Origin: Patescibacteria group bacterium
GTDB taxonomy: Bacteria > Patescibacteriota > Patescibacteriia > UBA11705 > JABHMO01
Assembly: GCA_038062385.1 (NCBI GenBank)
Contig: JBBTXH010000082.1
Coordinates: 3,749-29,354 of the forward strand
Length of the DNA: 25,606 nt
Reading direction: 5' to 3'
Positions within the stretch are counted from its first letter, which is position 1, and each line of letters begins with the position of its first letter. A program made the position numbers and the translations under genes. Positions 3 to 25,527 of this stretch are shown piece by piece. The notes beneath the pieces are model-generated. The model had not been told where the DNA came from. It worked only from the letters and a program-made list of their open reading frames with translations, and searched no databases.

Positions 3-821
3 CACACGACTTTGCATTTGTTGTATTCTCGTTTCTTGCATAAATTTTTATTTGATATCGGCGCGGTACCGACCCCTGAACCGTATCAAAAACGGGTTTC
101 GCATGGTATGATCCTCGCGTCCGACGGACAAAAAATGTCCAAGTCGCGTGGTAATGTGATCAATCCTGATTCAGTGGTGGAAGATTATGGCGCGGACGCT
201 CTGCGCGTTTACGAAATGTTTGTCGGTCCCTATGATCAGACGGTCGCTTGGAACATGAACGGACTGATCGGCGTGCGCAGGTTTTTGGAAAAGATTTATG
301 CGTTCGATAAATTTATTGAGGCTGATTCAAAAGAAGTTTTAGCTTTGTTGCACAGAACAATCCAAAAAGTGACCGAGGATATTGATCAGATGAGATTCAA
401 CACCGCTGTTTCAACTATGATGATTTTCATGAATAAAATTCAAACTGATGGTTGCACCGGAGAGTCGTTTAAAAAGTTTTTAACATTGCTTTGTCCGTTC
501 GCGCCGCATTTGGCGGAGGAAATTTTGAATAGAATGAGGGATAACGAGGGAGGACGAGGAATGTCGAGGGAAAAAGAAACGAGCATTACGCTCAAACAAT
601 GGCCGGAATACGATAAAAATTTAATTACTCAAGAAAGCATTGAAATTCCTGTTCAAATAAACGGCAAGGTTCGAGAAAAACTGCAGGCTGATCCGAATAT
701 TTCAGAAGAAGAAATAAAACAGCTGGCGTTTAAGAGTGAAAAAATTCAAAAATTCTTGAATGGGGTTGAACCGAAAAAAATAATTTATGTTAAAGGAAGA
801 ATGTTGAGCATTGTCATATAA
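3..821 (+). CDS. leuS: Leucyl-tRNA synthetase, C-terminal part (truncated by window start)
   Basis: HLLYSRF..HK, class I KMSKS motif (GQKMSKSRGNVINPD), YGADALRVYEMF, FNTAVS anticodon-binding helix, C-terminal PVQINGKVR; frame is open from position 3. Confidence 0.97.
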   Translation, partial: HTTLHLLYSRFLHKFLFDIGAVPTPEPYQKRVSHGMILASDGQKMSKSRGNVINPDSVVEDYGADALRVYEMFVGPYDQTVAWNMNGLIGVRRFLEKIYAFDKFIEADSKEVLALLHRTIQKVTEDIDQMRFNTAVSTMMIFMNKIQTDGCTGESFKKFLTLLCPFAPHLAEEILNRMRDNEGGRGMSREKETSITLKQWPEYDKNLITQESIEIPVQINGKVREKLQADPNISEEEIKQLAFKSEKIQKFLNGVEPKKIIYVKGRMLSIVI

Positions 822-3422: not shown

Positions 3423-3539
3423 GCTTATTGATTGATAATCAATTTAAATGTCTGGTACAATTGATAATGTTTTTGTATATTAGTTCTTGCTAAAATTAAA
3501 CAAAAAAGGTTATATTCTCAACTTGAATGTCAGTGGCTA

Positions 3540-3568
3540 TTGACAAATTAAAAAATATGCGATATAAT
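3540..3568 (+). promoter_or_regulatory. Sigma70-type promoter
   Basis: Perfect TTGACA (3540-3545)-17 nt-TATAAT (3563-3568). Confidence 0.8.
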
Positions 3569-3627
3569 GCTTTGATGTTACCTTTGGCTGACGTGCTTGT
3601 CTAGCTAAACTTAACAAGGAGGAAACA

Positions 3628-3789
3628 ATGAATAAATTGTATCGGAAAGTGGTTCGGTTTAATAGAGAGAAGTTCTTTAGAGCGGTCAGTCGGGCGGTGA
3701 ACGGCGCGGTGCCGGCGAGCAGGCCGCATTCCTCAAAAAAAGGAAAGCGCGGTTACAGCCGCGTTCAAGGAAAGAAGGTGGAGGATTAA
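3628..3789 (+). CDS. 53-aa highly basic small protein (absent from ORF track)
   Basis: AAGGAGG SD, ATG 3628, MNKLYRKVVRFNREKFFRAVSRAVNGAVPASRPHSSKKGKRGYSRVQGKKVED, TAA 3787-3789; own promoter and terminator. Confidence 0.7.
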   Translation: MNKLYRKVVRFNREKFFRAVSRAVNGAVPASRPHSSKKGKRGYSRVQGKKVED

Positions 3790-3805
3790 AAATGAAGAGA
3801 AACAA

Positions 3806-3836
3806 AAAAGCGTTCTTAATCAAAGAGAACGCTTTT
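3806..3836. terminator. Bidirectional intrinsic terminator
   Basis: AAAAGCGTTCT taatcaaag AGAACGCTTTT between convergent genes. Confidence 0.75.
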
Positions 3837-3846
3837 AAATTTATGA

Positions 3847-5829
3847 TTATGGTTGAACCGTGCCGTTTCCCGTGGCAAAAGAATCAAGTTCAAGCGCAGT
3901 GGTTAAAATGCTTTTTGTTCTGGTGATCAGCTCATCGGTGGAGACATCTCTCGCCACGAGCGTGCAGTTCCCAGTCAACTTGAGTAGTGTTCCGATCTCG
4001 TTTGTTTGAGGAGTAAAGGCAAGGCTGAAATTAGCATGAGCTTCTTTGACTAAAGCTGGTAAACGATTTATTTTCCAGGCAATGGTGCGGCTGGCCTCAT
4101 CAAAAGTAATTTCACCGGTCGAAACATTTTTTTCGTTTATCCAATTTATATTTTGAGGTAAGGCAGTACTTACAGTTAGATCTTTTATCTCGTGAAGATC
4201 ATTGGAAAGATCCCAAAAGATTTTTAGTTTTGTGGTTTGACCAGCGTGTGGTGGCCAAGGACCAGTACCGACCGGTGTACCATCGCTGTAATAATATAAT
4301 GCTTTTGCCCCAATGTTAACGTTAGAATTCAGCACCAGAATAACCGGACTGCTTTTAACCGGTGGAATGGCGCTATTGTTTTTTTCGTCAAGAATAATTT
4401 GAGAACTTATTTCAATGGTTGATTGATTTAATGAATTGAGATCAATGTTCGTCAATTCAGCCAGTGATTTGAGAGGTAGAATGATATTAACGGAAACATC
4501 TTTGCCGGGAGCCAGAGATTTTAATTCACTGATTTGTTTCGCTTCCCAAGTGATTTCTTTGGTTTCGTTTAATTTTTGTATTTTGCCGAAATGATCGTCT
4601 TTGATTTTGTTCCAGTTGATAATTTCAGAAGATAAACTGGTAATCAATATTTTTATTTTCAAATTTTGATAAGCAGACACGCCATTGTTTTTCGCGATCG
4701 CGGAAATGGTTAATTCGTCTCCCAATCCAACGGCTTTATTTTCCGTTGAACCGTTGACGATGAGATAAGTATTGAGCGCCTGATCAATGATTTTGATCGT
4801 GAATTTTGTTTCACTAACCGCGAGGTATTGGCCGTCTTTTCCCGGCAGAAGTATTTGTACGGTGAAAGGCTGTTCGCGTTCCGCCTCATTCTGGAAGGAT
4901 AGATCAGCGGGGAAGGAGCCTTCGATGGAGATGTTTTTGCTTTCTTCTTTCCCCTTCAGTTCAGAAATTATCCATTGGTTGCTGTCTTCATAGGCATTGG
5001 GAGAAGCGTTTAAAAAGGCAAATTTTTCCGGATAGAGATATTGAAGTTTAATGTTTTCAAACAGGCGGTCGCTTTTGTTTTTCAACTTGGTTTGCAGAGT
5101 GATTTTTTGGCCGGGAGTGAGGTTAGCCGGGAAAACATTAGCCAAGTCGATTTGCGGCGCTTCGAGTGCGATGGAAAGAGATGTCTCTTTGGTAAAGTCT
5201 GAACGGAAATTGTCAGGTTGAAAGGTAATGGCCGCGATTAATTTCTGTTCACTCTCTAAAGTATCAACGATTTTGCCGGTAATCGTGATCTTGCCTTTTT
5301 GTCCAGGGGCTAAAGTTCCCAATTCCCATTTGTGATTGGAATTTTGTGGCTCTGCTTTCATCATGATAAAGCCTTTGGGATATTGGACGGTGATGCGACT
5401 GGTCAGAAAGTCAGCGTCGCCAAGGTTTTGATAGGTGATAATGTAGGCAAATTCTTCGCCAACTTGAATTTTATCAGGAGCTTCAATGGCGATACTAACA
5501 GCTTCTGTTGCCGGCCGCACGTTGCCGCTGAAATAAAAAAAACCGGCTAACGCTGATCCGGCCAATAGCACCAGACCGATGATTGAGAAAATGACAATCT
5601 TTTTTTTGCGATGTTGTCGCTTTTCGTCGATCAATTCCTTCAGATAATATTCGTCTTTCAATTTATTGATCTGGCTTTCGTGTTTAGCATCCACGGCTTC
5701 AATTGAAACGCCATTCAATTCTTGTTCTTCTTCAGCATAAAGGTCGATCAGATCCTGAATCGGATCTTCTTTTTTGTATTTTATTTTTTTTCTTTTAAAT
5801 TTAAAAAAATGGTTTTTTTTATTATCCAT
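3847..5829 (-). CDS. Membrane-anchored extracellular protein with repeated beta-sandwich (DUF11-like) domains
   Basis: Single N-terminal TM (IVIFSIIGLVLLAGSALAGFFYF); repeats such as GEEFAYIITYQNLG and WELGTLAPGQKGKITITG. Confidence 0.7.
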   Translation of the reverse strand: MDNKKNHFFKFKRKKIKYKKEDPIQDLIDLYAEEEQELNGVSIEAVDAKHESQINKLKDEYYLKELIDEKRQHRKKKIVIFSIIGLVLLAGSALAGFFYFSGNVRPATEAVSIAIEAPDKIQVGEEFAYIITYQNLGDADFLTSRITVQYPKGFIMMKAEPQNSNHKWELGTLAPGQKGKITITGKIVDTLESEQKLIAAITFQPDNFRSDFTKETSLSIALEAPQIDLANVFPANLTPGQKITLQTKLKNKSDRLFENIKLQYLYPEKFAFLNASPNAYEDSNQWIISELKGKEESKNISIEGSFPADLSFQNEAEREQPFTVQILLPGKDGQYLAVSETKFTIKIIDQALNTYLIVNGSTENKAVGLGDELTISAIAKNNGVSAYQNLKIKILITSLSSEIINWNKIKDDHFGKIQKLNETKEITWEAKQISELKSLAPGKDVSVNIILPLKSLAELTNIDLNSLNQSTIEISSQIILDEKNNSAIPPVKSSPVILVLNSNVNIGAKALYYYSDGTPVGTGPWPPHAGQTTKLKIFWDLSNDLHEIKDLTVSTALPQNINWINEKNVSTGEITFDEASRTIAWKINRLPALVKEAHANFSLAFTPQTNEIGTLLKLTGNCTLVARDVSTDELITRTKSILTTALELDSFATGNGTVQP

Positions 5830-10301: not shown

Positions 10302-10514
10302 CTAGAAGGTGAGAAGAGCGCGAGGAATCCTCGGGGCGCAATAGAGAGCTTCCACCGCCGGATCAATCCCGTCAACATTTTCTCCTTCAATTCTCATCGA
10401 GGCGATCGCGCCGGTCACTATGGAATTAGCTATCATCTCGCGAAGTTCTTTTTCAGACAGATTAACCGTGACGTCCCCATCATCATCAGAAACGTGTATT
10501 TGGAAAGCAGACAT
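10302..10514 (-). CDS. Small protein with Fic-inhibitory SxxxEG motif (VbhA-like antitoxin candidate)
   Basis: AAGGAGG SD, ATG 10514, promoter TTGACA (10561-10566)-17-TAAACT; sequence contains GAIASMRIEG. Confidence 0.6.
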   Translation of the reverse strand: MSAFQIHVSDDDGDVTVNLSEKELREMIANSIVTGAIASMRIEGENVDGIDPAVEALYCAPRIPRALLTF

Positions 10515-10589
10515 TCGCACCTCCTTTGCGTAGTTTGAGTTTAACGTTTTTAGAGGTAAATGTCAATGGTTTCGTTTTAAAATGAAAAT

Positions 10590-10613
10590 CCCCATCGTGC
10601 GATGATGATGGGG
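10590..10613 (-). terminator. Terminator hairpin downstream of tRNA-Gln copy
   Basis: CCCCATCGT gcgatg ATGATGGGG, T-rich tail on minus strand. Confidence 0.65.
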
Positions 10614-10621
10614 CTTATGAG

Positions 10622-10692
10622 TTCGGGCGGGAGGGATCGAACCTCCATAATAGGATCCAAGGTCCTGTGTCCTACCATTGAACGACGCCCGA
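10622..10692 (-). tRNA. tRNA-Gln(TTG), island copy (C33, C27-A43 mismatch)
   Basis: TCGGGCG/CGCCCGA acceptor, GTTC/GGAC D-stem, CAGGA CCTTGGA TCCTA anticodon arm, GGAGG TTCGATC CCTCC T-arm; no encoded CCA. Confidence 0.88.
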
Positions 10693-10708
10693 TTTGGAAA
10701 TAAAATCG

Positions 10709-10782
10709 TGTCTCCAACGAGATTTGAACTCGTGTCACCGGCGTGAAAAGCCGGTGTCTTAATCTGGCTAGACGATGGGGAC
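10709..10782 (-). tRNA. tRNA-Glu(TTC), with deviations
   Basis: CCGGC TTTTCAC GCCGG anticodon arm, ACGAG TTCAAAT CTCGT T-arm; acceptor C4-A69 mismatch; D-loop lacks GG. Confidence 0.85.
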
Positions 10783-10832
10783 TCTTTGAAACTTGGCGGG
10801 CATTTCTGGTTAAGTACCCCACCTTTACAGCA

Positions 10833-10861
10833 ATTATAGGGCTTATTTGAGGCTTTGTCCA
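10833..10861 (-). promoter_or_regulatory. Promoter for tRNA-Glu/tRNA-Gln pair
   Basis: TGGACA (10856-10861)-17-TATAAT (10833-10838). Confidence 0.65.
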
Positions 10862-11035
10862 ACGGACAAAATGAGGCATGTGGGTCGGGGTCTTATAAGA
10901 TAACTTGTGAGACATTGGAAAAACAGATGGGTCTCACAGATTTGAGGATTGGCTAAGATAAGCGGGATAAAAGTGAGATGAGACAAATGAGACACGGAAA
11001 GAGCTTTCTCGACCATTAAGATTCCATCAATCTAT

Positions 11036-11064
11036 TTGACAAAACGAATATAATCGCATATAAT
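11036..11064 (+). promoter_or_regulatory. Promoter of Fic operon
   Basis: Perfect TTGACA-17-TATAAT. Confidence 0.8.
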
Positions 11065-11093
11065 CAAATACAGATTATACATAACATTATAAT

Positions 11094-12158
11094 ATGCCAA
11101 AATTAAACAAAAGGTTCTCTTTTAATCCCGAAGCAACCCACAAAATCTATGGCCTGATCGCGCAAATCGACGAACTGAAAGGCCAATGGAAAATGGGAGC
11201 GAATCTGTCACCGCAGACTTTAGGCATGCTGAAAAGATCGGTCATTGTCACGTCCTCTGGTGCGTCCACTCGTATTGAAGGAGCGAAGCTTACCGATGAA
11301 CAGGTTGAGAAATTGCTCAAAGGGTTGAAGATCCAAAAACTGGCCACTCGAGATGAACAAGAGGTCGCCGGCTATGCCGAGCTGCTGACCAATGTTTTTG
11401 ATTCATACAAAAAGTTGGAACTGACTGAAAGCACGATAAAACATTTCCACAGTGAACTACTGAAGTACTCGGATAAGGATGTTCGCCACCGCGGCGAGTA
11501 TAAATTTGGCACTAACCGAGTGGAAGCCAAGGATGCCGACGGGAAGGTGGTCGGCGTATTGTTCGACCCTACCCCGCTTCATTTGGTTGCCAAGGAGATG
11601 CAAGAACTTATTGAGGAAACGAAAAAACTTTTGGAAGCAAAAGAAGTCCATCCCCTGATTGTTATCGCCGCTTTTATTTTTGAATTTTTATCCATCCACC
11701 CGTTCCAAGACGGGAACGGCAGATCTTCTCGCGTGCTAACAAATTTGTTGCTTTTAAAGAACGGCTATGAATACATGCCGTATGTTTCGCATGAGAAATT
11801 AGTGGAAGACAATAAGAATGAATACTATCTTGCTCTCAATCGAACGCAACGAACGTGGAAAACGGAACACGAAGACATCAGTCCGTGGCTGTTGTTTTTC
11901 CTGAATATTATGCTCAAGCAAACTCAAATCGCAATCGGGTTGTTATCCAAAGAATCCATTGAAAATATGCTTTCGGAAAAACAACTGGCCGTCTGGCATT
12001 ATTTCAGCGCGCACGACACCGTAACGCCGAAAGAATTGCGAGACAACCTTAAAATTGCCGGGCCGACAGTGGCGCAAATTTTAAACAAGCTTTTGGAAAT
12101 GAGAAAAATTGAACGCCTGGGAGCTGGCAGAAGCTCAAGGTATCGATTGCTTAAATAA
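11094..12158 (+). CDS. Fic-family protein (class II-like) with C-terminal winged HTH
   Basis: Intact HPFQDGNGRSSR active-site motif; N-terminal STRIEG inhibitory motif. Confidence 0.93.
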   Translation: MPKLNKRFSFNPEATHKIYGLIAQIDELKGQWKMGANLSPQTLGMLKRSVIVTSSGASTRIEGAKLTDEQVEKLLKGLKIQKLATRDEQEVAGYAELLTNVFDSYKKLELTESTIKHFHSELLKYSDKDVRHRGEYKFGTNRVEAKDADGKVVGVLFDPTPLHLVAKEMQELIEETKKLLEAKEVHPLIVIAAFIFEFLSIHPFQDGNGRSSRVLTNLLLLKNGYEYMPYVSHEKLVEDNKNEYYLALNRTQRTWKTEHEDISPWLLFFLNIMLKQTQIAIGLLSKESIENMLSEKQLAVWHYFSAHDTVTPKELRDNLKIAGPTVAQILNKLLEMRKIERLGAGRSSRYRLLK

Positions 12159-12160
12159 CT

Positions 12161-12418
12161 ATGTCGATAAAAATCAAGACGGCGCATGCCCGCAATTGGT
12201 TCTACGGCAACATCTGCACCAAAAAGTGTTACGCCGACATTGAAAAGCAAAAACATTGCTATGATAAAATGGCCGAGATGATCAAAGGTAATGAAGACTA
12301 CTTCATTACGCATAACACCTTTGTTAAAACAATACGCCAAAAACACAAAGAAGTCTGTGACATTTCCGATGAGCTTTTTAACCACAATGAAAGCGATTTT
12401 TGGCATCGAAAACTTTAA
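12161..12418 (+). CDS. Hypothetical 85-aa protein
   Basis: Packed 2-3 nt from both neighbours in the same direction; no motif recognised. Confidence 0.65.
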   Translation: MSIKIKTAHARNWFYGNICTKKCYADIEKQKHCYDKMAEMIKGNEDYFITHNTFVKTIRQKHKEVCDISDELFNHNESDFWHRKL

Positions 12419-12421
12419 TTT

Positions 12422-14594
12422 GTGATTGATCTAACTCCCCAAGAAAAAATTGCTTTGTTTAAATCCCTCTTCCGCGGAAGAGAGGATGTTTTTGCCGTGC
12501 GCTGGGAGAAAAAAGACGGTTCAGCTTCCGGCTATACGCCCGTTTGCCTGAATGAATGGAAAACCGACATATGCAACAAGCTCCAAAGCAAAAAATGCAA
12601 GGATTGCGCTCATAGCCAATATATCGGGATCAGCGAGCAACACATTGAGCAGCATCTGCGCGGCGCGAAAACATATGGAATTTATCCATTATTGAATGAC
12701 AATTCATCCTGTTTTATTGTCGCTGATTTTGATGGGAATGATTGGCAAGAAAAAATCGACGGGTTCCATGGCATTTGTTCAAAGCATGATCTGCCTGCAT
12801 ATATCGAACGCTCGCGCTCCGGCAATGGCGGCCATGCCTGGATATTCTGTGAGGACAAATACCCTGCCTACAAAAGCAGAAATGTGGTCATTAACCTGCT
12901 GAAAGAAGCGGGCATAATTGATCAATTTGAAAAAGACGATTGCTTTGACCGGTTATTTCCCAATCAAGACGCGCTTAGCGGCAAAGGTTTCGGCAACCTT
13001 ATCGCCTTTGCCGCTACAAGGTGAGGCGCGCAAGCGCGACAATACCGTATTTTTAGATCCTGACGCTAATTTGTTGCCGTTTGCCGACCAATGGGAATTA
13101 TTGAAACTGATAAAACGCGTTCCAATCGCGCATTTGGATAAATTGCATGCTCTTTTCAATTCCGCCGGCGCGGAGCCGAGTTCGTCGGCTTCCGAATTAA
13201 GCATTACCGTCGGAAATATGCTTTTCCTGAATAAATCCTTTCTGCCTAAGATTTTGATAAATTACCTGAAAGATACGCTTAATTTTCTAAATTCCGACTT
13301 TCTGATAAAAAAGAAAATCGGTGCTTCGGTGTATAAGGTGGGAAAATATTTCAAGCTGATTCAAACGTTTGACGATACCATCGCCATCCCGCGCGGTTTT
13401 CTGCATAGATTGACTGATTTCCTGAAAGAAAAGCATACTGAGTATAAAATTGATGATCGGCGTTTAAAGCTCGATGAAGTAAAATTTGAAAACAGTATCA
13501 AATTGTTCCCTCATCAGGTCGAAGCAGTTGATAAAATGATCGCCGTTGACGCCGGCGTCCTAGTTGCGCCGCCCGGCTCAGGGAAAACAATCATCGGGCT
13601 AGACATAATTGCCAAACAAAAACAGCCGGCCTTGATTTTGACGAATAAAAAGCAAATCTTCAACCAATGGCTGGAACGAATAGAAGGGTTTCTTAATTTA
13701 CCAAAGCGCCAGATTGGACAATATACCTCGAATAAGAAGAAGCTTGGAGAAAAGATCACGGTCGCGATGGTGCAGACGCTGAACAACGCGGCCGAACAAG
13801 AACTCGCCGGAAAATTCGGCCTGATACTGGTGGATGAATACCATCACATGCCCGCAAAAATGTTCCGCAACGTCATCACCAGATTCAATCCTTATTTTCT
13901 TTACGGACTTACGGCCACGCCAAAACGAAAAAACAATGACACGGATTTGATCTTCTTCTTTCTCGGCGATATAATCCACACCATGCCGAATTCATTCGGG
14001 AAACCGGAAGCCGCGAAACAAAGCACCGTAGTGGCAAAGTCGCCCAGTGGTTTGAAAGTTATCATTAGAGAAACGGATTTGTCCGTTCCGTTTAAAGTCA
14101 AGACGGACAATGTGCAGATGCTGTACAAAATTATCACTTTTGATACGGCGAGAAACAAGCAAATCATTGCCGACATCAAACGCGAAGCGGAACAGAACAA
14201 ACGGTGCTTGATTTTGACCGAGCGCAAGGAACACGTGGATGTTTTGAACTCCTATCTGAAGCGAGAATATGAAACTATCATTCTGACAGGCGACTTAACC
14301 GAAAAACAGCGTCGACTGAAAGTGAAGCAGATCCAAGCAGGGCATTTCCAGATACTTATCGCCACCGGCCAGCTCATCGGAGAAGGAACTGATTTTAACA
14401 ACTTAGATTGCCTTTTTCTTGCATTTCCCTTTGCCTTTGAAGGCAAATTGACGCAATATATCGGGAGGATCAACCGCGGTCTGAATACTGGCGGAACGAT
14501 TTATGATTACAATGATAGCCAAGTCGAATATCTGAAAAGATTTTTCAAAAAGCGGAATGCTTATTATCGGAAGAACTTCGAATGTGTGCAATAG
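12422..14594 (+). pseudogene. AEP (TOTE-type) primase domain plus SF2 DExH helicase, split by one +1 frameshift
   Basis: LFRGREDVFA, GIYPLL, ADFD, ERSRSGNGGHAWIF, DRLFPNQD primase-like motifs; removing one T of TTT 13007-13009 restores GNLIALPLQGE; helicase APPGSGKT, DEYHH, TAT, QYIGR. Confidence 0.8.
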
Positions 14595-14642
14595 CGGCAA
14601 ACATAAAAACAGCCAACGAATGGATCTGTTTTTAAAATATAA

Positions 14643-14670
14643 AACCTCATCGTGCGATGACGATGAGGTT
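14643..14670 (-). terminator. Terminator of tRNA operon
   Basis: AACCTCATCGT gcgatg ACGATGAGGTT, 11 bp, T-tract on minus strand. Confidence 0.75.
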
Positions 14671-14676
14671 AATGAG

Positions 14677-14748
14677 TTCGAGCGGGAGGAATCGGACCTC
14701 CGTTCCGGGATCCAAAGTCCCGTGTCCTGCCAACTGGACGACGCTCGA
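14677..14748 (-). tRNA. tRNA-Gln(TTG), resident copy
   Basis: TCGAGCG/CGCTCGA, CGGGA CTTTGGA TCCCG, GGAGG TCCGATT CCTCC (C at position 55). Confidence 0.9.
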
Positions 14749-14775
14749 ATTACGGATTAGAAATCGAAAAAGAAA

Positions 14776-14926
14776 GTGATTAGCGCACTGGCATTATGCA
14801 AGTCGCCGCCACTTATGTGGAAGCCACGCCCGTAGATTACTGCTCCTTATGAGCGCGTAATCACCAACGCCTTGTCGCATTTGCGCCTGCCAAGTTTCCC
14901 GGGCCGGGTTCTTGGCAACTAATCAC
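14776..14926 (-). ncRNA. Unassigned 151-nt structured RNA within tRNA operon
   Basis: 8-bp closing helix GTGATTAG/CTAATCAC, several internal helices; G-U pairs favour the minus strand. Confidence 0.6.
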
Positions 14927-14928
14927 AG

Positions 14929-15013
14929 AGGAAAGAGTGGGATTCGAACCCACGGAGGCTTTCACCTCTGCGGTTTAGTAGACCGCCGCCTTAAACCACT
15001 CGGCCATCTTTCC
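14929..15013 (-). tRNA. tRNA-Ser with ACT anticodon
   Basis: GGAAAGA/TCTTTCC acceptor, GCGGT CT ACT AA ACCGC, long variable arm, GTGGG TTCGAAT CCCAC. Confidence 0.9.
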
Positions 15014-15036
15014 TTTTACAAGTGAACGTTGATTAG

Positions 15037-15177
15037 AGGAGGGAGTGGGATTTTCATCTCGCCAGCGGGCGGGACGGGCTCCACGGGAGCTTTCACCCCA
15101 GTGGTTTTCAGGACCACCGCCTTAAGCCGCCCCGCCTTCGCATGAAGCTATGACGGGGCAAGCTCGGCCATCCCTCC
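15037..15177 (-). tRNA. tRNA-Ser(TGA) with D-loop and T-loop hairpin insertions (141 nt)
   Basis: GGAGGGA/TCCCTCC acceptor, GTGGT CCTGAAA ACCAC, variable arm GGGGTGAAAGCTCC; insertions at 15129-15161 and ~15055-15080. Confidence 0.8.
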
Positions 15178-15270: not shown

Positions 15271-15343
15271 TGCGCACCGCGGGGCTCGAACCCGCGACCT
15301 ACGGATTAAAAGTCCGGTGCTCTACCAACTGAGCTAGGTGCGC
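15271..15343 (-). tRNA. tRNA-Lys(TTT)
   Basis: GCGCACC/GGTGCGC, loop CTTTTAA, GCGGG TTCGAGC CCCGC. Confidence 0.95.
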
Positions 15344-15369: not shown

Positions 15370-15398
15370 ATTATAGCATATCAGAAATTTATTGTCAA
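15370..15398 (-). promoter_or_regulatory. tRNA operon promoter
   Basis: Perfect TTGACA-17-TATAAT with extended -10 TG. Confidence 0.85.
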
Positions 15399-19969: not shown

Positions 19970-20079
19970 ATTTCAGAAAATAATTGATGAATGAATATAT
20001 TATAACAGTTATTATGCGGAATGTCGATTTTTAAAAAATAAAAAAACACCAATTTTTACAATTGCTGTTTTTTAATGTC

Positions 20080-20401
20080 CCAAACAAGCGAATAAGCCGG
20101 ATTCTGTTTTAACTGTCATCTATCTTGTCCCGCAATCGCTGGAGAGATCATGCGGGCTACCAAATTTGCCCTTGCACCCAAGTAAGGGTTTAGCCGTTTC
20201 ACTCCCACCTTCGCATAAAGCTACGGTGGGACTAATCCCGAAGGATCCCAAGAACCTCGCGGTCTTGGCGTCTCTGCTCGCACCTCTATCTCACGACCGA
20301 CAGGGATTACCTGCTACTCGCGTCAATTTAATGGCTAGGTGTCCGGACTTTCCTCTCCCCGTAGCTTTACGCGAAGGGGAGCGACAGAACTGCTTGTTTG
20401 G
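20080..20401 (-). ncRNA. rnpB: RNase P RNA (type A-like)
   Basis: P1 CCAAACAAGC/GCTTGTTTGG; conserved GAGGAAAGTCCGGAC and AAACAGAATCCGGCTTA P4 halves. Confidence 0.95.
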
Positions 20402-23715: not shown

Positions 23716-25527
23716 TTACACTTCAATAACTACCGGCAAAATCATCGGTCGTCTTTCAGTTTTCTGGTAAAGAAATTGACCAATGGCGTCGCGGAGTTTG
23801 TTTTTGAGTTCAAGCGGATCAAAAACAGTGCGTTTTTTGCCGACAACTTTTTTTACCAGAGCGCGAGCGTCTTCAATCAGCTGTTTGCTTTCTTTCATGT
23901 AAACAAAACCGCGGGAAATGATATCCGGACTGCCCATCAGTTCTCCGGTTTTTCGTTTCACGGTGGTAATAACCACGAACATACCGTCTTCAGCCATCAT
24001 GCGGCGGTCGCGCAGCACAATCCTCGAACCCTCGCCCACGCCCAGGCCGGCCACCATGACGTAGTCAGTCGGCACTTTTTCTTCGGTCAAACGGCCGAGA
24101 GTTTCTTGTTGATTTTGGCTTCTGAAAAATTCCATCACCTGTCCATTGGCGGCCACAAAAATATTTTCTTTCGGAACGCCGACGCTTTCCGCGAGTTGGC
24201 CGTGAATTCTCAGCATGTAATGATTGGCTTCAATCGGAATAAAATATTTCGGTTTGAGCAAACGAATCACCAGCTTCAAATCTTCTTGCTTGGCGTGTCC
24301 GCCGGCATGAATATCCATGTGCTGATAGTGATAAACCCTCGCGCCTTGTTTGTAGAAAGTGTCTTTTAGATTTTGAATAGTGCGTTCATTGCCCGGAATA
24401 ACGGAAGAAGAGAAGACAATGGAGTCGCCTTCTTCAACGCTGAGGAATCTGTGTTCTTTATTAGCAATGCGATTCAAAACCGCATTTTTTTCACCTTGCG
24501 CGCCGGTGCCGATGACCGTGATTTTGTTGTTCGGCAGACGTTTCATTTCATTCTCATCGATCAAAGTGCCTTTTTGAAATCTGATATAGCCGAGTTGGTG
24601 AGCGATTTCAATGTTTGTGTTCATACTGCGTCCGTCGAGATAGATTTTGCGGCCGAATTTTTCCGCGGCCGTGATGATTTGTTGAATACGATTGATGAGA
24701 GAGGCGAATGTTCCGACAATAATACGGCCTTGAGCTTCTTGAAAAATTTGTTCAATGGAATGAGTGATTTCCCCTTCGGAAATTTGATGTCCGCGATGCT
24801 CAGCGTCAGTGCTGTCAGCCATGAGCGCGAGAACTCCGCGACTGCCGATCTGCGCCACGCGACCCAGATCAATTGGTTTGTCGTTAATCGGGCTCAAATC
24901 AACTTTAAAGTCGCCGGTGTGAACAATCGTTCCGACCGGTGTGTGCAGAACCGCGGCAAAACTGTCCGGAATATTGTGATTAACGCGAAAAAATTCTACG
25001 TTAAATGAACCTAGACGAATAATGTCTTTGTCAGGATTAATAACGCGCAGATCAAGAGGCTGTTTGCCATATTCCTCATGTCGTTTTTTAATAAATCCGG
25101 CAGTGAGCGGAGCGGTGTAAATGGGCGGATTGCCCAGCTCCGGACAGAGATGAGAGACCGCGCCGATGTGGTCGTAATGTCCGTGGGTGATGATCACTCC
25201 GCGGATGTTTTTGATTTTTGTTTTGAGATAAGTGATGTCCGGAATAATGTAATCAATGCCGGGCATGTCTTCCTCGGGGAATTGAAGTCCCATGTCGATA
25301 ATGACAATGTCCTGACCGTATTCGAGCACGGTCATGTTGCGGCCGACTTCTTCGAGGCCGCCGAGGACCATGATGCGCAACCGCGGCGAGCCGTCTGACT
25401 TAACGGCCGGAACGATTGGTTTCGGTGCAGCGATGATCGGACGATTCGTTCTCTGCGGCAGACCTGACTGCGTATGCGGTCCACGCCGTCTGAACGGTTG
25501 ATAATGTTTGGTGTTTCTTTGAATCAT
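23716..25527 (-). CDS. rnj: Ribonuclease J
   Basis: LGGLEEVGRNM, ITHGHYDHIG metallo-beta-lactamase motif, HTGDFK, beta-CASP SSSVIPGNE, HAGGHA, RRPMILPVVIEV. Confidence 0.97.
   Translation of the reverse strand: MIQRNTKHYQPFRRRGPHTQSGLPQRTNRPIIAAPKPIVPAVKSDGSPRLRIMVLGGLEEVGRNMTVLEYGQDIVIIDMGLQFPEEDMPGIDYIIPDITYLKTKIKNIRGVIITHGHYDHIGAVSHLCPELGNPPIYTAPLTAGFIKKRHEEYGKQPLDLRVINPDKDIIRLGSFNVEFFRVNHNIPDSFAAVLHTPVGTIVHTGDFKVDLSPINDKPIDLGRVAQIGSRGVLALMADSTDAEHRGHQISEGEITHSIEQIFQEAQGRIIVGTFASLINRIQQIITAAEKFGRKIYLDGRSMNTNIEIAHQLGYIRFQKGTLIDENEMKRLPNNKITVIGTGAQGEKNAVLNRIANKEHRFLSVEEGDSIVFSSSVIPGNERTIQNLKDTFYKQGARVYHYQHMDIHAGGHAKQEDLKLVIRLLKPKYFIPIEANHYMLRIHGQLAESVGVPKENIFVAANGQVMEFFRSQNQQETLGRLTEEKVPTDYVMVAGLGVGEGSRIVLRDRRMMAEDGMFVVITTVKRKTGELMGSPDIISRGFVYMKESKQLIEDARALVKKVVGKKRTVFDPLELKNKLRDAIGQFLYQKTERRPMILPVVIEV

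Follow-up and report, generated by a model that had tools for sequence, protein, structure and literature searches.

A conserved structured RNA without an Rfam match lies in a tRNA operon of Patescibacteria

What is the 151-nt segment that lies between a tRNA-Ser gene and a tRNA-Gln gene in a tRNA operon of a patescibacterium? Few non-coding RNAs are known from Patescibacteria, whose genomes are tiny. The segment, here named X151, is encoded in a window of 25,606 nucleotides (the whole stretch of DNA that was analyzed) on contig C82 of genome G000 (1.08 Mb in 152 contigs). Public sources assign neighboring proteins to Candidatus Falkowbacteria or Patescibacteria, and the names of matching contigs point to the groundwater wells of Hainich. 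An earlier note, made from the letters alone, had described it as a structured, housekeeping-like non-coding RNA on the tRNA-sense strand that belongs to no known family. Its fold, its G-U pairs, and the lack of any Rfam match support this description, except for the housekeeping character, which the distribution of X151 does not support.

X151 is the fourth of five parts in one transcription unit, which runs from promoter to terminator through tRNA-Lys, tRNA-Ser(UGA), tRNA-Ser(ACU), X151, and tRNA-Gln (Table 1). Three related loci (L036, L094, and L105) have this promoter, too, ahead of their tRNA-Lys. As had been read from the sequence, X151 starts 2 nt past the discriminator of tRNA-Ser(ACU), and its ends abut the upstream tRNA exactly in every variant. 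A promoter and terminator scan found neither a consensus-grade promoter nor a terminator in the flanks of X151; a weak promoter-like match (9 of 12 positions) within X151, at 14821-14793, is the sole match listed there. The spacer between X151 and tRNA-Gln is kept neither in sequence nor in length, which is 27, 19, and 14 nt across three lineages.

Table 1. Features of the tRNA operon, of X151, and of neighboring genes in the window (nt, numbering within X151; w/, paired with)
Feature	X151 nt	Window position	Strand	Remarks
Operon promoter		15370-15398	minus	TTGACA, 17 nt, TGnTATAAT; 12 of 12 consensus matches
tRNA-Lys(UUU)		15271-15343	minus	First gene of the unit
tRNA-Ser(UGA)		15035-15175	minus	Hairpin inserts in D-loop and T-loop; three blocks match tRNA-Ser(UGA) of G009
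tRNA-Ser(ACU)		14929-15013	minus	Discriminator 2 nt before X151
X151	1-151	14776-14926	minus	151-nt structured RNA
P1 (closing helix)	1-9 w/ 143-151	14918-14926 and 14776-14784	minus	9 pairs
P2	10-16 w/ 33-39	14888-14917 (P2 + P2a, nt 10-39)	minus	Invariant
P2a	19-22 w/ 26-29		minus	Compensatory C-G to U-A changes at 2 pairs
P3 mini-hairpin	42-44 w/ 49-51	14876-14885	minus	CGC-AAAU-GCG; C-G to U-A in 3 variants
P4, 5' strand	57-64	14863-14870	minus	Pairs with nt 135-142; 100% paired
P4, 3' strand	135-142	14785-14792	minus	
Hairpin A	65-92 (65-70 w/ 87-92, 73-76 w/ 82-85)	14835-14862	minus	Loop AUAAG
Hairpin B	100-126 (100-105 w/ 120-126, 107-110 w/ 115-118)	14801-14827	minus	Loop AUAA
First CAUAA motif		14851-14847	minus	In hairpin A
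Second CAUAA motif		14817-14813	minus	In hairpin B
Third CAUAA motif		14794-14798	minus	Within divergent segment nt 123-142
Spacer, X151 to tRNA-Gln		14749-14775	minus	Pyrimidine-rich; 27 nt
tRNA-Gln(UUG)		14677-14748	minus	Final gene of the unit
Intrinsic terminator		14643-14670	minus	Ends the tRNA unit
Islet		10565-14748		
Fic gene of the islet		11094-12158		
Primase/SF2 helicase ORFs of the islet		12422-13024 and 12918-14594		Split into overlapping ORFs
Small gene after the tRNA operon		10302-10514	minus	One of three small genes in relatives
RNase P RNA (class A)		20077-20400	minus	104.8 bits; Rfam cut-off 100
RNase J		23716-25527	minus	Beta-CASP and C-terminal domains; 9 kb from operon

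The two serine tRNA genes of the unit have features of their own. In the window, tRNA-Ser(UGA) carries a 33-nt insert in its D-loop and another insert that replaces the UUCG of its T-loop, and this interrupted gene receives no call from ARAGORN or Rfam. As no other tRNA-Ser(UGA) was found in G000, either this gene still works as it stands or its insert is cut out. The deep-mine DeMMO genome has a D-loop insert in tRNA-Ser(UGA) and a 43-nt T-loop insert in tRNA-Ser(ACU) (L094, 294-553). Both serine tRNAs of L105 are canonical (3471-3655), as is the D-loop of the L036 tRNA-Ser(UGA), a gene truncated where its contig stops (1987-2029). The tRNA-Ser(ACU), with A34, is kept across several genera of the family, including the window, G009 (L004, 1609-1694), L094, and L105 (3570-3655), and G000 also has a normal tRNA-Ser(GCU) on contig C39.

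Does X151 belong to a known class of RNA? Searched against Rfam, it matched nothing at the gathering cut-offs nor at E<=10, and the matches in the window were confined to tRNAs and tRNA-derived plastid motifs. The earlier note had seen no hallmarks of a T-arm, SRP RNA, 5S rRNA, or tmRNA; in agreement, X151 has no T-loop and is matched by none of these models at E<=10. The 5S rRNA of G000 is on contig C9 (RF00001, 86.5 bits) and its tmRNA on contig C19. No 6S RNA was detected in G000 (RF00013), and the branched conserved fold of X151 differs from 6S RNA, an extended, irregular duplex that opens into a large bubble at its center. SRP RNA (RF00169, RF01854) has no model match anywhere in G000 at E<=10, and the genome lacks an Ffh M domain (SRP_SPB), an SRP54-type GTPase domain above cut-off, and a DTAGR motif in any frame; since G000 has no Ffh or FtsY, X151 is excluded as SRP RNA. 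A protein gene was rejected as well: the stop-to-stop frames reach at most 54 aa and the variants differ by 1-nt indels, hence there is no coding frame. A C/D-box reading of the two ends (GUGAUUA and CUAA) was rejected by inspection, because both ends are fully Watson-Crick complementary and no kink-turn is possible.

The SRP searches gave an observation in its own right. SRP_SPB was found in each of 14 control genomes, but in none of 16 family genomes and none of 81 genomes sampled from the class, several of which consist of a single contig. The SRP pathway thus seems to have been lost throughout the class.

To which sequences can X151 be compared? Variants were found in aquifer and other metagenome assemblies, namely Hainich, a DeMMO MAG, PRJNA268031, and two further ENA assemblies; there are 8 matches in all, representing 6 distinct sequences, and the place within the operon is the same for each. 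Contigs reached via a small neighboring ORF yielded five identical copies and one variant (L088, well H14). A gapped pattern of two hairpin loops, run against one genome per prokaryote species, gave a single match, the DeMMO deep-mine MAG (L094, genome G061), and the small protein downstream of that copy led to L105, L106, L107, and L112-L114, from PRJNA268031 groundwater and the two ENA assemblies. In a Logan contig from a drinking-water run (X11), tRNA-Lys is joined straight to the 5' end of X151 and both serine tRNA genes are skipped. The sequencing runs that hold X151 sequence are all DNA, and no RNA run was among those listed.

The minus-strand copy in the window has a minimum free energy of -62.5 kcal/mol (z = -4.0), which none of 200 shuffled sequences equaled; the plus strand gives z = -2.8 and the variant from well H14 z = -5.9. 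RNAalifold independently recovered the same seven helices as the manual reading. Most of the elements that had been proposed from a single sequence hold up among the variants. The closing helix, GUGAUUAG(U)/(G)CUAAUCAC, is P1 and is invariant in all 5 distinct full-length variants. The hairpin UGCCAAG..CCCG-GCC-CGGG..CUUGGCA corresponds to P2 and P2a, with two compensated pairs in the apical stem, and the sister hairpins, whose loops are AUAAG and AUAA, correspond to hairpins A and B. The exception is a long arm (GCGCA/UGCGC, AUGC/GCAU, CAAG/CUUG, and CGUUG/CGGCG), which is not kept: it is 69.7% paired in a 5-sequence alignment, has no compensated pair, and has several pairs broken in 4 of the 5 sequences. 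The variants favor P3 and P4 in its place, and this arm, one third of the secondary structure first proposed, is on the comparative evidence wrong. P4, in which GCGUUGGU pairs with GCCAGUGC/GCCAACGC, encloses hairpins A and B. It is absent from the single-sequence minimum free energy structure of the window copy, which has two G-U pairs in P4; all other variants have G-C and U-A there, so that these two pairs alternate between wobble and Watson-Crick.

How strong is the support for this fold? Over the 6 distinct variants, which come from about four lineages and in which P1 and P2 never vary, 96.9% of 286 cells are paired. Four pairs change on both sides (8 cells), two of them in P2a, one in P3, and one in hairpin A, where a pair varies among A-U, G-C, and G-U; switches between wobble and Watson-Crick pairs occur in P4, A, and B. 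When the partners are slid by 1 to 3 columns, pairing falls to 30-46%, and in a column-shuffle control, which is not a probability, the pairing or covariation score of the real alignment is attained only once in 500 shuffles. The structure is thus well supported by the compared sequences, though not proven. Four G-U pairs in every variant and three that are lineage specific are compatible with the tRNA-sense strand only, in line with what the earlier note had claimed for the wobble pairs, which argues for a function as RNA over a function as DNA.

X151 is 149 to 151 nt long among the variants and 150 to 151 nt in the Hainich, PRJNA268031, and DeMMO lineages. Between these three lineages, a segment-by-segment comparison gave 84-88% identity for X151 and 79-88% for tRNA-Lys and tRNA-Gln, and 48-62% over the longer copy for spacers 2 and 3, which also differ in length. 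Fixed length, tRNA-like identity, and poorly conserved spacers together indicate that X151 is under purifying selection. A 35-nt stretch (nt 87-121 of L105) is identical in the four most conserved variants, and nt 123-142, which face the islet in the window, are the sole segment that is strongly divergent between the window and the other variants. X151 is kept with or without inserts in the serine tRNAs (window, L094, and L105), and also in L088, where the next gene is tRNA-Glu and not tRNA-Gln.

How widely is X151 distributed? Neither blastn nor a covariance model of one sequence found it in 15 other genomes of the family or 10 further genomes of the order, and covariance models built from one, two, or three sequences gave no true match in the family, the order, about 150 class genomes, or 60 relatives of G061. 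In total, about 440 genomes of the family, the order, the class sample, and the relatives of G061 were searched by models or blastn. A blastn search with the operon against 60 relatives matched tRNAs only. Three weak model matches, in G009 (contig C25, 17.8 bits), G227 (21.2 bits), and G197 (18.6 bits), were rejected; they have many broken pairs and no tRNA neighbors. There was no match in phages and plasmids, nor in IMG/VR with a first pattern; another pattern gave two chance matches of 16 to 24 nt in IMG/VR, one of them within a small ORF. Loci reached via the neighboring glycosyltransferase, at 42-81% identity (L036-L041, L080, and L081), are without X151 or lie on contigs that end before the site. 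The closest comparison is L080, whose glycosyltransferase is 79% identical and whose flanking genes are the same, with only tRNA-Lys at the X151 site. X151 was thus not found in the searched genomes of the family, order, and class or in this close relative, which argues for a clade-restricted accessory RNA and not for the housekeeping role once suggested, and its patchy presence among close relatives shows that it is dispensable. On this sampling, X151 is an accessory RNA, confined to a small Falkowbacteria-like clade within the Patescibacteria.

Some of the neighboring genes recur or are rearranged between relatives. Three small genes (70, 69, and 79 to 80 aa) follow the tRNA operon in every relative (in L094 at 896-1689 and in L105 at 4001-4790), and the last of them is weakly ParE-like, thus probably part of a toxin-antitoxin module. 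In L080, which lacks X151 and the serine and glutamine tRNAs, a Y1 (IS200-like) transposase occupies the X151 site (3620-4183), which makes the interval between the two glycosyltransferase genes a hot spot of rearrangement.

What, then, is X151? Position, strand, fold support, conservation, and narrow distribution are observed; transcription, excision, and stability are what we infer from them. We consider the chances about even that X151 is the gene for a compact, stable non-coding RNA of an undescribed family, which is released from the tRNA operon by tRNA processing and serves as a putative CAUAA platform. X151 would be cotranscribed with tRNA-Lys, the two serine tRNAs, and tRNA-Gln from the one sigma-70-type promoter and would probably be freed during maturation of the flanking tRNAs; as X151 lies within one tRNA unit, release by tRNA processing is the natural expectation. 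The gene for tRNA-Ser(ACU) does not encode the CCA, and 3' maturation of this tRNA would set the 5' end of X151. The 3' end of X151 would be set when RNase P cuts where the following tRNA begins and the product is then trimmed from its 3' side to P1. The window also encodes RNase P RNA and RNase J. No RNase Z was recognized in G000, where only weak metallo-beta-lactamase matches were found, so the route to the 5' end is uncertain. The RNase P RNA of the window has missing and inserted segments. In the supported fold, the 9-bp P1 bears P2/P2a, P3, and P4, with hairpins A and B borne by P4.

The weakest step of this reading is function. The CAUAA motif occurs 3, 3, 3, and 4 times in the four full-length variants tested, always unpaired (p about 1e-4 by shuffling); the third copy has shifted its position between variants, and the fourth arose in P3 of L105, from PRJNA268031. 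Hairpins with a CAUAA loop are not enriched across G000 (22 seen against 38 expected), hence the motif is not a general genomic signal. The display of three to four unpaired CAUAA copies suggests that X151 may act in trans as a binding platform, and its loops and junctions could form a multivalent platform, decoy, or sponge for one factor, either a protein or a tRNA anticodon loop. Two short matches may serve as leads only. CAUAA equals positions 34-38 of CAU-anticodon loops, and hairpin A has GCUCAUAA in common with the initiator tRNA of G000; AUAAG is the complement of CUUAU, which forms part of the anticodon loop in tRNA-Ile(UAU), an unusual tRNA. A bolder proposal, which we regard as a long shot, is a new class of tRNA-operon decoy RNA, whose CAUAA loops would mimic the CAU anticodon and soak up an enzyme or toxin acting on initiator or Met tRNA, or would bind tRNA-Ile(UAU) like a T-box specifier. 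If either version were true, the decoy would be made in step with tRNA synthesis.

Could X151 instead be a passive structured spacer? Such a spacer would act in cis only, for example against misfolding between neighboring tRNAs, as a roadblock to exonucleases, or as the place where processing enzymes enter, and once the tRNAs were mature it would be degraded. The place of X151 between tRNAs of one transcription unit, its exact abutment on the upstream tRNA, and the many relatives whose tRNA clusters work without it all agree with this reading. However, the ordinary spacers of the same operon are short and poorly conserved, and a cis insulator needs neither a fixed length of 150 nt, nor a 35-nt identical stretch, nor three to four copies of a loop motif. 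We therefore regard a mere spacer as unlikely.

Could X151 be derived from a tRNA? A former tRNA gene, swollen by palindromic hairpin insertions of the kind that hit its serine tRNA neighbors and RNase P RNA, and by now nonfunctional or exapted, would account for some features of the locus. P1 (7+2 bp), with P4 stacked directly on its 3' strand and P2 starting 2 nt past P1, recalls the layout of acceptor, T-arm, and D-arm; the hairpin insertions in the D- and T-loops of the adjacent serine tRNAs are polymorphic; the cluster of G009 has extra tRNA genes (Ile, Glu, and Pro) between the Ser pair and tRNA-Gln; and the G000 assembly is without tRNA-Asn. Against this, X151 has no match to the tRNA model (RF00005) at E<=10, no ARAGORN call, and no significant blastn match to 57 tRNAs of G000 and G009. 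It lacks a T-loop, a 7-nt anticodon loop, and a GUU anticodon loop, and it has 17 nt where an anticodon arm and variable region need 23 nt. Its hairpins have no further copies in the genome, and conservation with compensatory changes speaks against a decaying pseudogene. A tRNA, or a surrogate of tRNA-Asn, was rejected for the lack of similarity and of a GUU loop, and descent from a swollen tRNA gene seems quite improbable.

The missing tRNA-Asn is a separate observation. ARAGORN, a blastn search with the tRNA-Asn of a relative, and a scan for anticodon arms found none in G000, blastn found none in G061, and the ARAGORN calls of a tRNA-Asn with intron proved to be false positives within coding sequence. 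This tRNA may fall in an assembly gap or may be disguised by insertions.

It is very improbable that X151 is an element at the DNA level with its RNA fold as a by-product, be it a cluster of protein-binding palindromes, a miniature inverted-repeat element, or the place where a mobile element ends or attaches. The locus is indeed a hot spot, with an islet of Fic and primase-helicase genes and an extra tRNA-Gln adjoining X151 in the window only and a Y1 transposase at the same site in L080; the strongly divergent segment faces the islet, and the ends of X151 form a 9-bp inverted repeat. However, X151 has the same ends in relatives without the islet (L088, L094, and L105). It is single-copy in both carrier genomes, G000 and G061, always at the same operon position and never at unrelated sites, and on these grounds a miniature inverted-repeat or palindromic mobile element was rejected; a repeat search in its own genome gave one insignificant 30-nt match. 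The searches of phages, plasmids, and IMG/VR found no X151, and the strand-specific G-U pairs and wobble/Watson-Crick switches would be C-A mismatches on the opposite strand.

The islet itself holds the Fic gene, an 85-aa ORF, and an archaeo-eukaryotic primase domain with an SF2 helicase, flanked by two diverged tRNA-Gln genes with terminators and with no integrase seen; the part from Fic through the extra tRNA-Gln covers 11094-14748. Its genes look like the primase-helicase of a small mobile islet. A link to the "TOTE conflict system" was rejected, as only the name of the primase domain family is common to both. The islet is missing at this site in L088, L094, and L105, all carriers of X151, and the idea that X151 is part of the islet was rejected as well.

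The least credible reading, a very divergent member of a universal RNA family (SRP, 6S, 5S, Y RNA, or a piece of tmRNA) missed by the Rfam models, could appeal to the undetected SRP and 6S RNAs of G000 as missing RNAs to be sought, but a divergent SRP RNA would have no partner there, none of the 16 family genomes has SRP RNA or SRP_SPB although 15 of them lack X151 as well, 5S rRNA and tmRNA are present elsewhere in G000, the branched fold is unlike 6S RNA, and a clade-restricted distribution ill suits a universal RNA.

The preferred reading, a stable RNA released from the tRNA operon, places X151 where tRNA-processing enzymes would excise it without extra machinery, and X151 adds to Patescibacteria a structured RNA family with comparative support and no Rfam match. 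Its narrow distribution limits its general importance. RNA genes at this locus also change fast, with hairpin inserts in the D- and T-loops of tRNAs, gain and loss of tRNAs, and a mobile islet in one lineage, so that nature itself provides a useful experiment on the tolerance of structured RNAs to change.

How does X151 compare with known systems? The hairpins inserted in its operon and in the RNase P RNA, variably present between close relatives, resemble Rickettsia palindromic elements; X151 itself is unlike palindromic insertion elements, being single-copy, conserved in length, and not made of hairpins repeated elsewhere. CsrB/RsmZ-type RNAs offer a working analogy, as they also carry several copies of a short motif in the loops and unpaired linkers of a multi-hairpin RNA; their motif is GGA, whereas that of X151 is CAUAA(G), in three to four copies only and with no Rfam match. 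In Escherichia coli, the 3' external transcribed spacer of glyW-cysT-leuZ reportedly acts as an sRNA sponge (a finding attributed to Lalaouna and colleagues in 2015). X151 would likewise be a by-product of a tRNA precursor, with a sponge role in trans that is reported for E. coli and hypothetical for X151, but the E. coli tRNA-operon spacers are short and weakly structured and base-pair with Hfq-dependent sRNAs, whereas X151 is 150 nt long and highly structured.

The nearest likeness is found in phage T4. Its record lists rnaC and rnaD as small stable RNAs of 139 and 119 nt, directly after tRNA-Arg and without an assigned function; these species 1 and 2 RNAs are named "RNA species I and II" in the legend of figure 1 of PMC2330249. 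X151 resembles them in size class, in its place beside a tRNA in a tRNA cluster, and in having no known role. There is no similarity in sequence or structure, the X151 model R3 reaching at best 5.7 bits on the T4 region; rnaC has a canonical T-arm (CCGGGUUCGAAUCCCGG) and X151 has none; and the T4 RNAs belong to a phage, X151 to a bacterial chromosome. X151 is thus real, conserved, and structured, the member of a new RNA family at a type of site already known, a second and unrelated instance of a non-tRNA RNA in a tRNA cluster, and its repeated loop motif offers a handle for finding what binds CAUAA.
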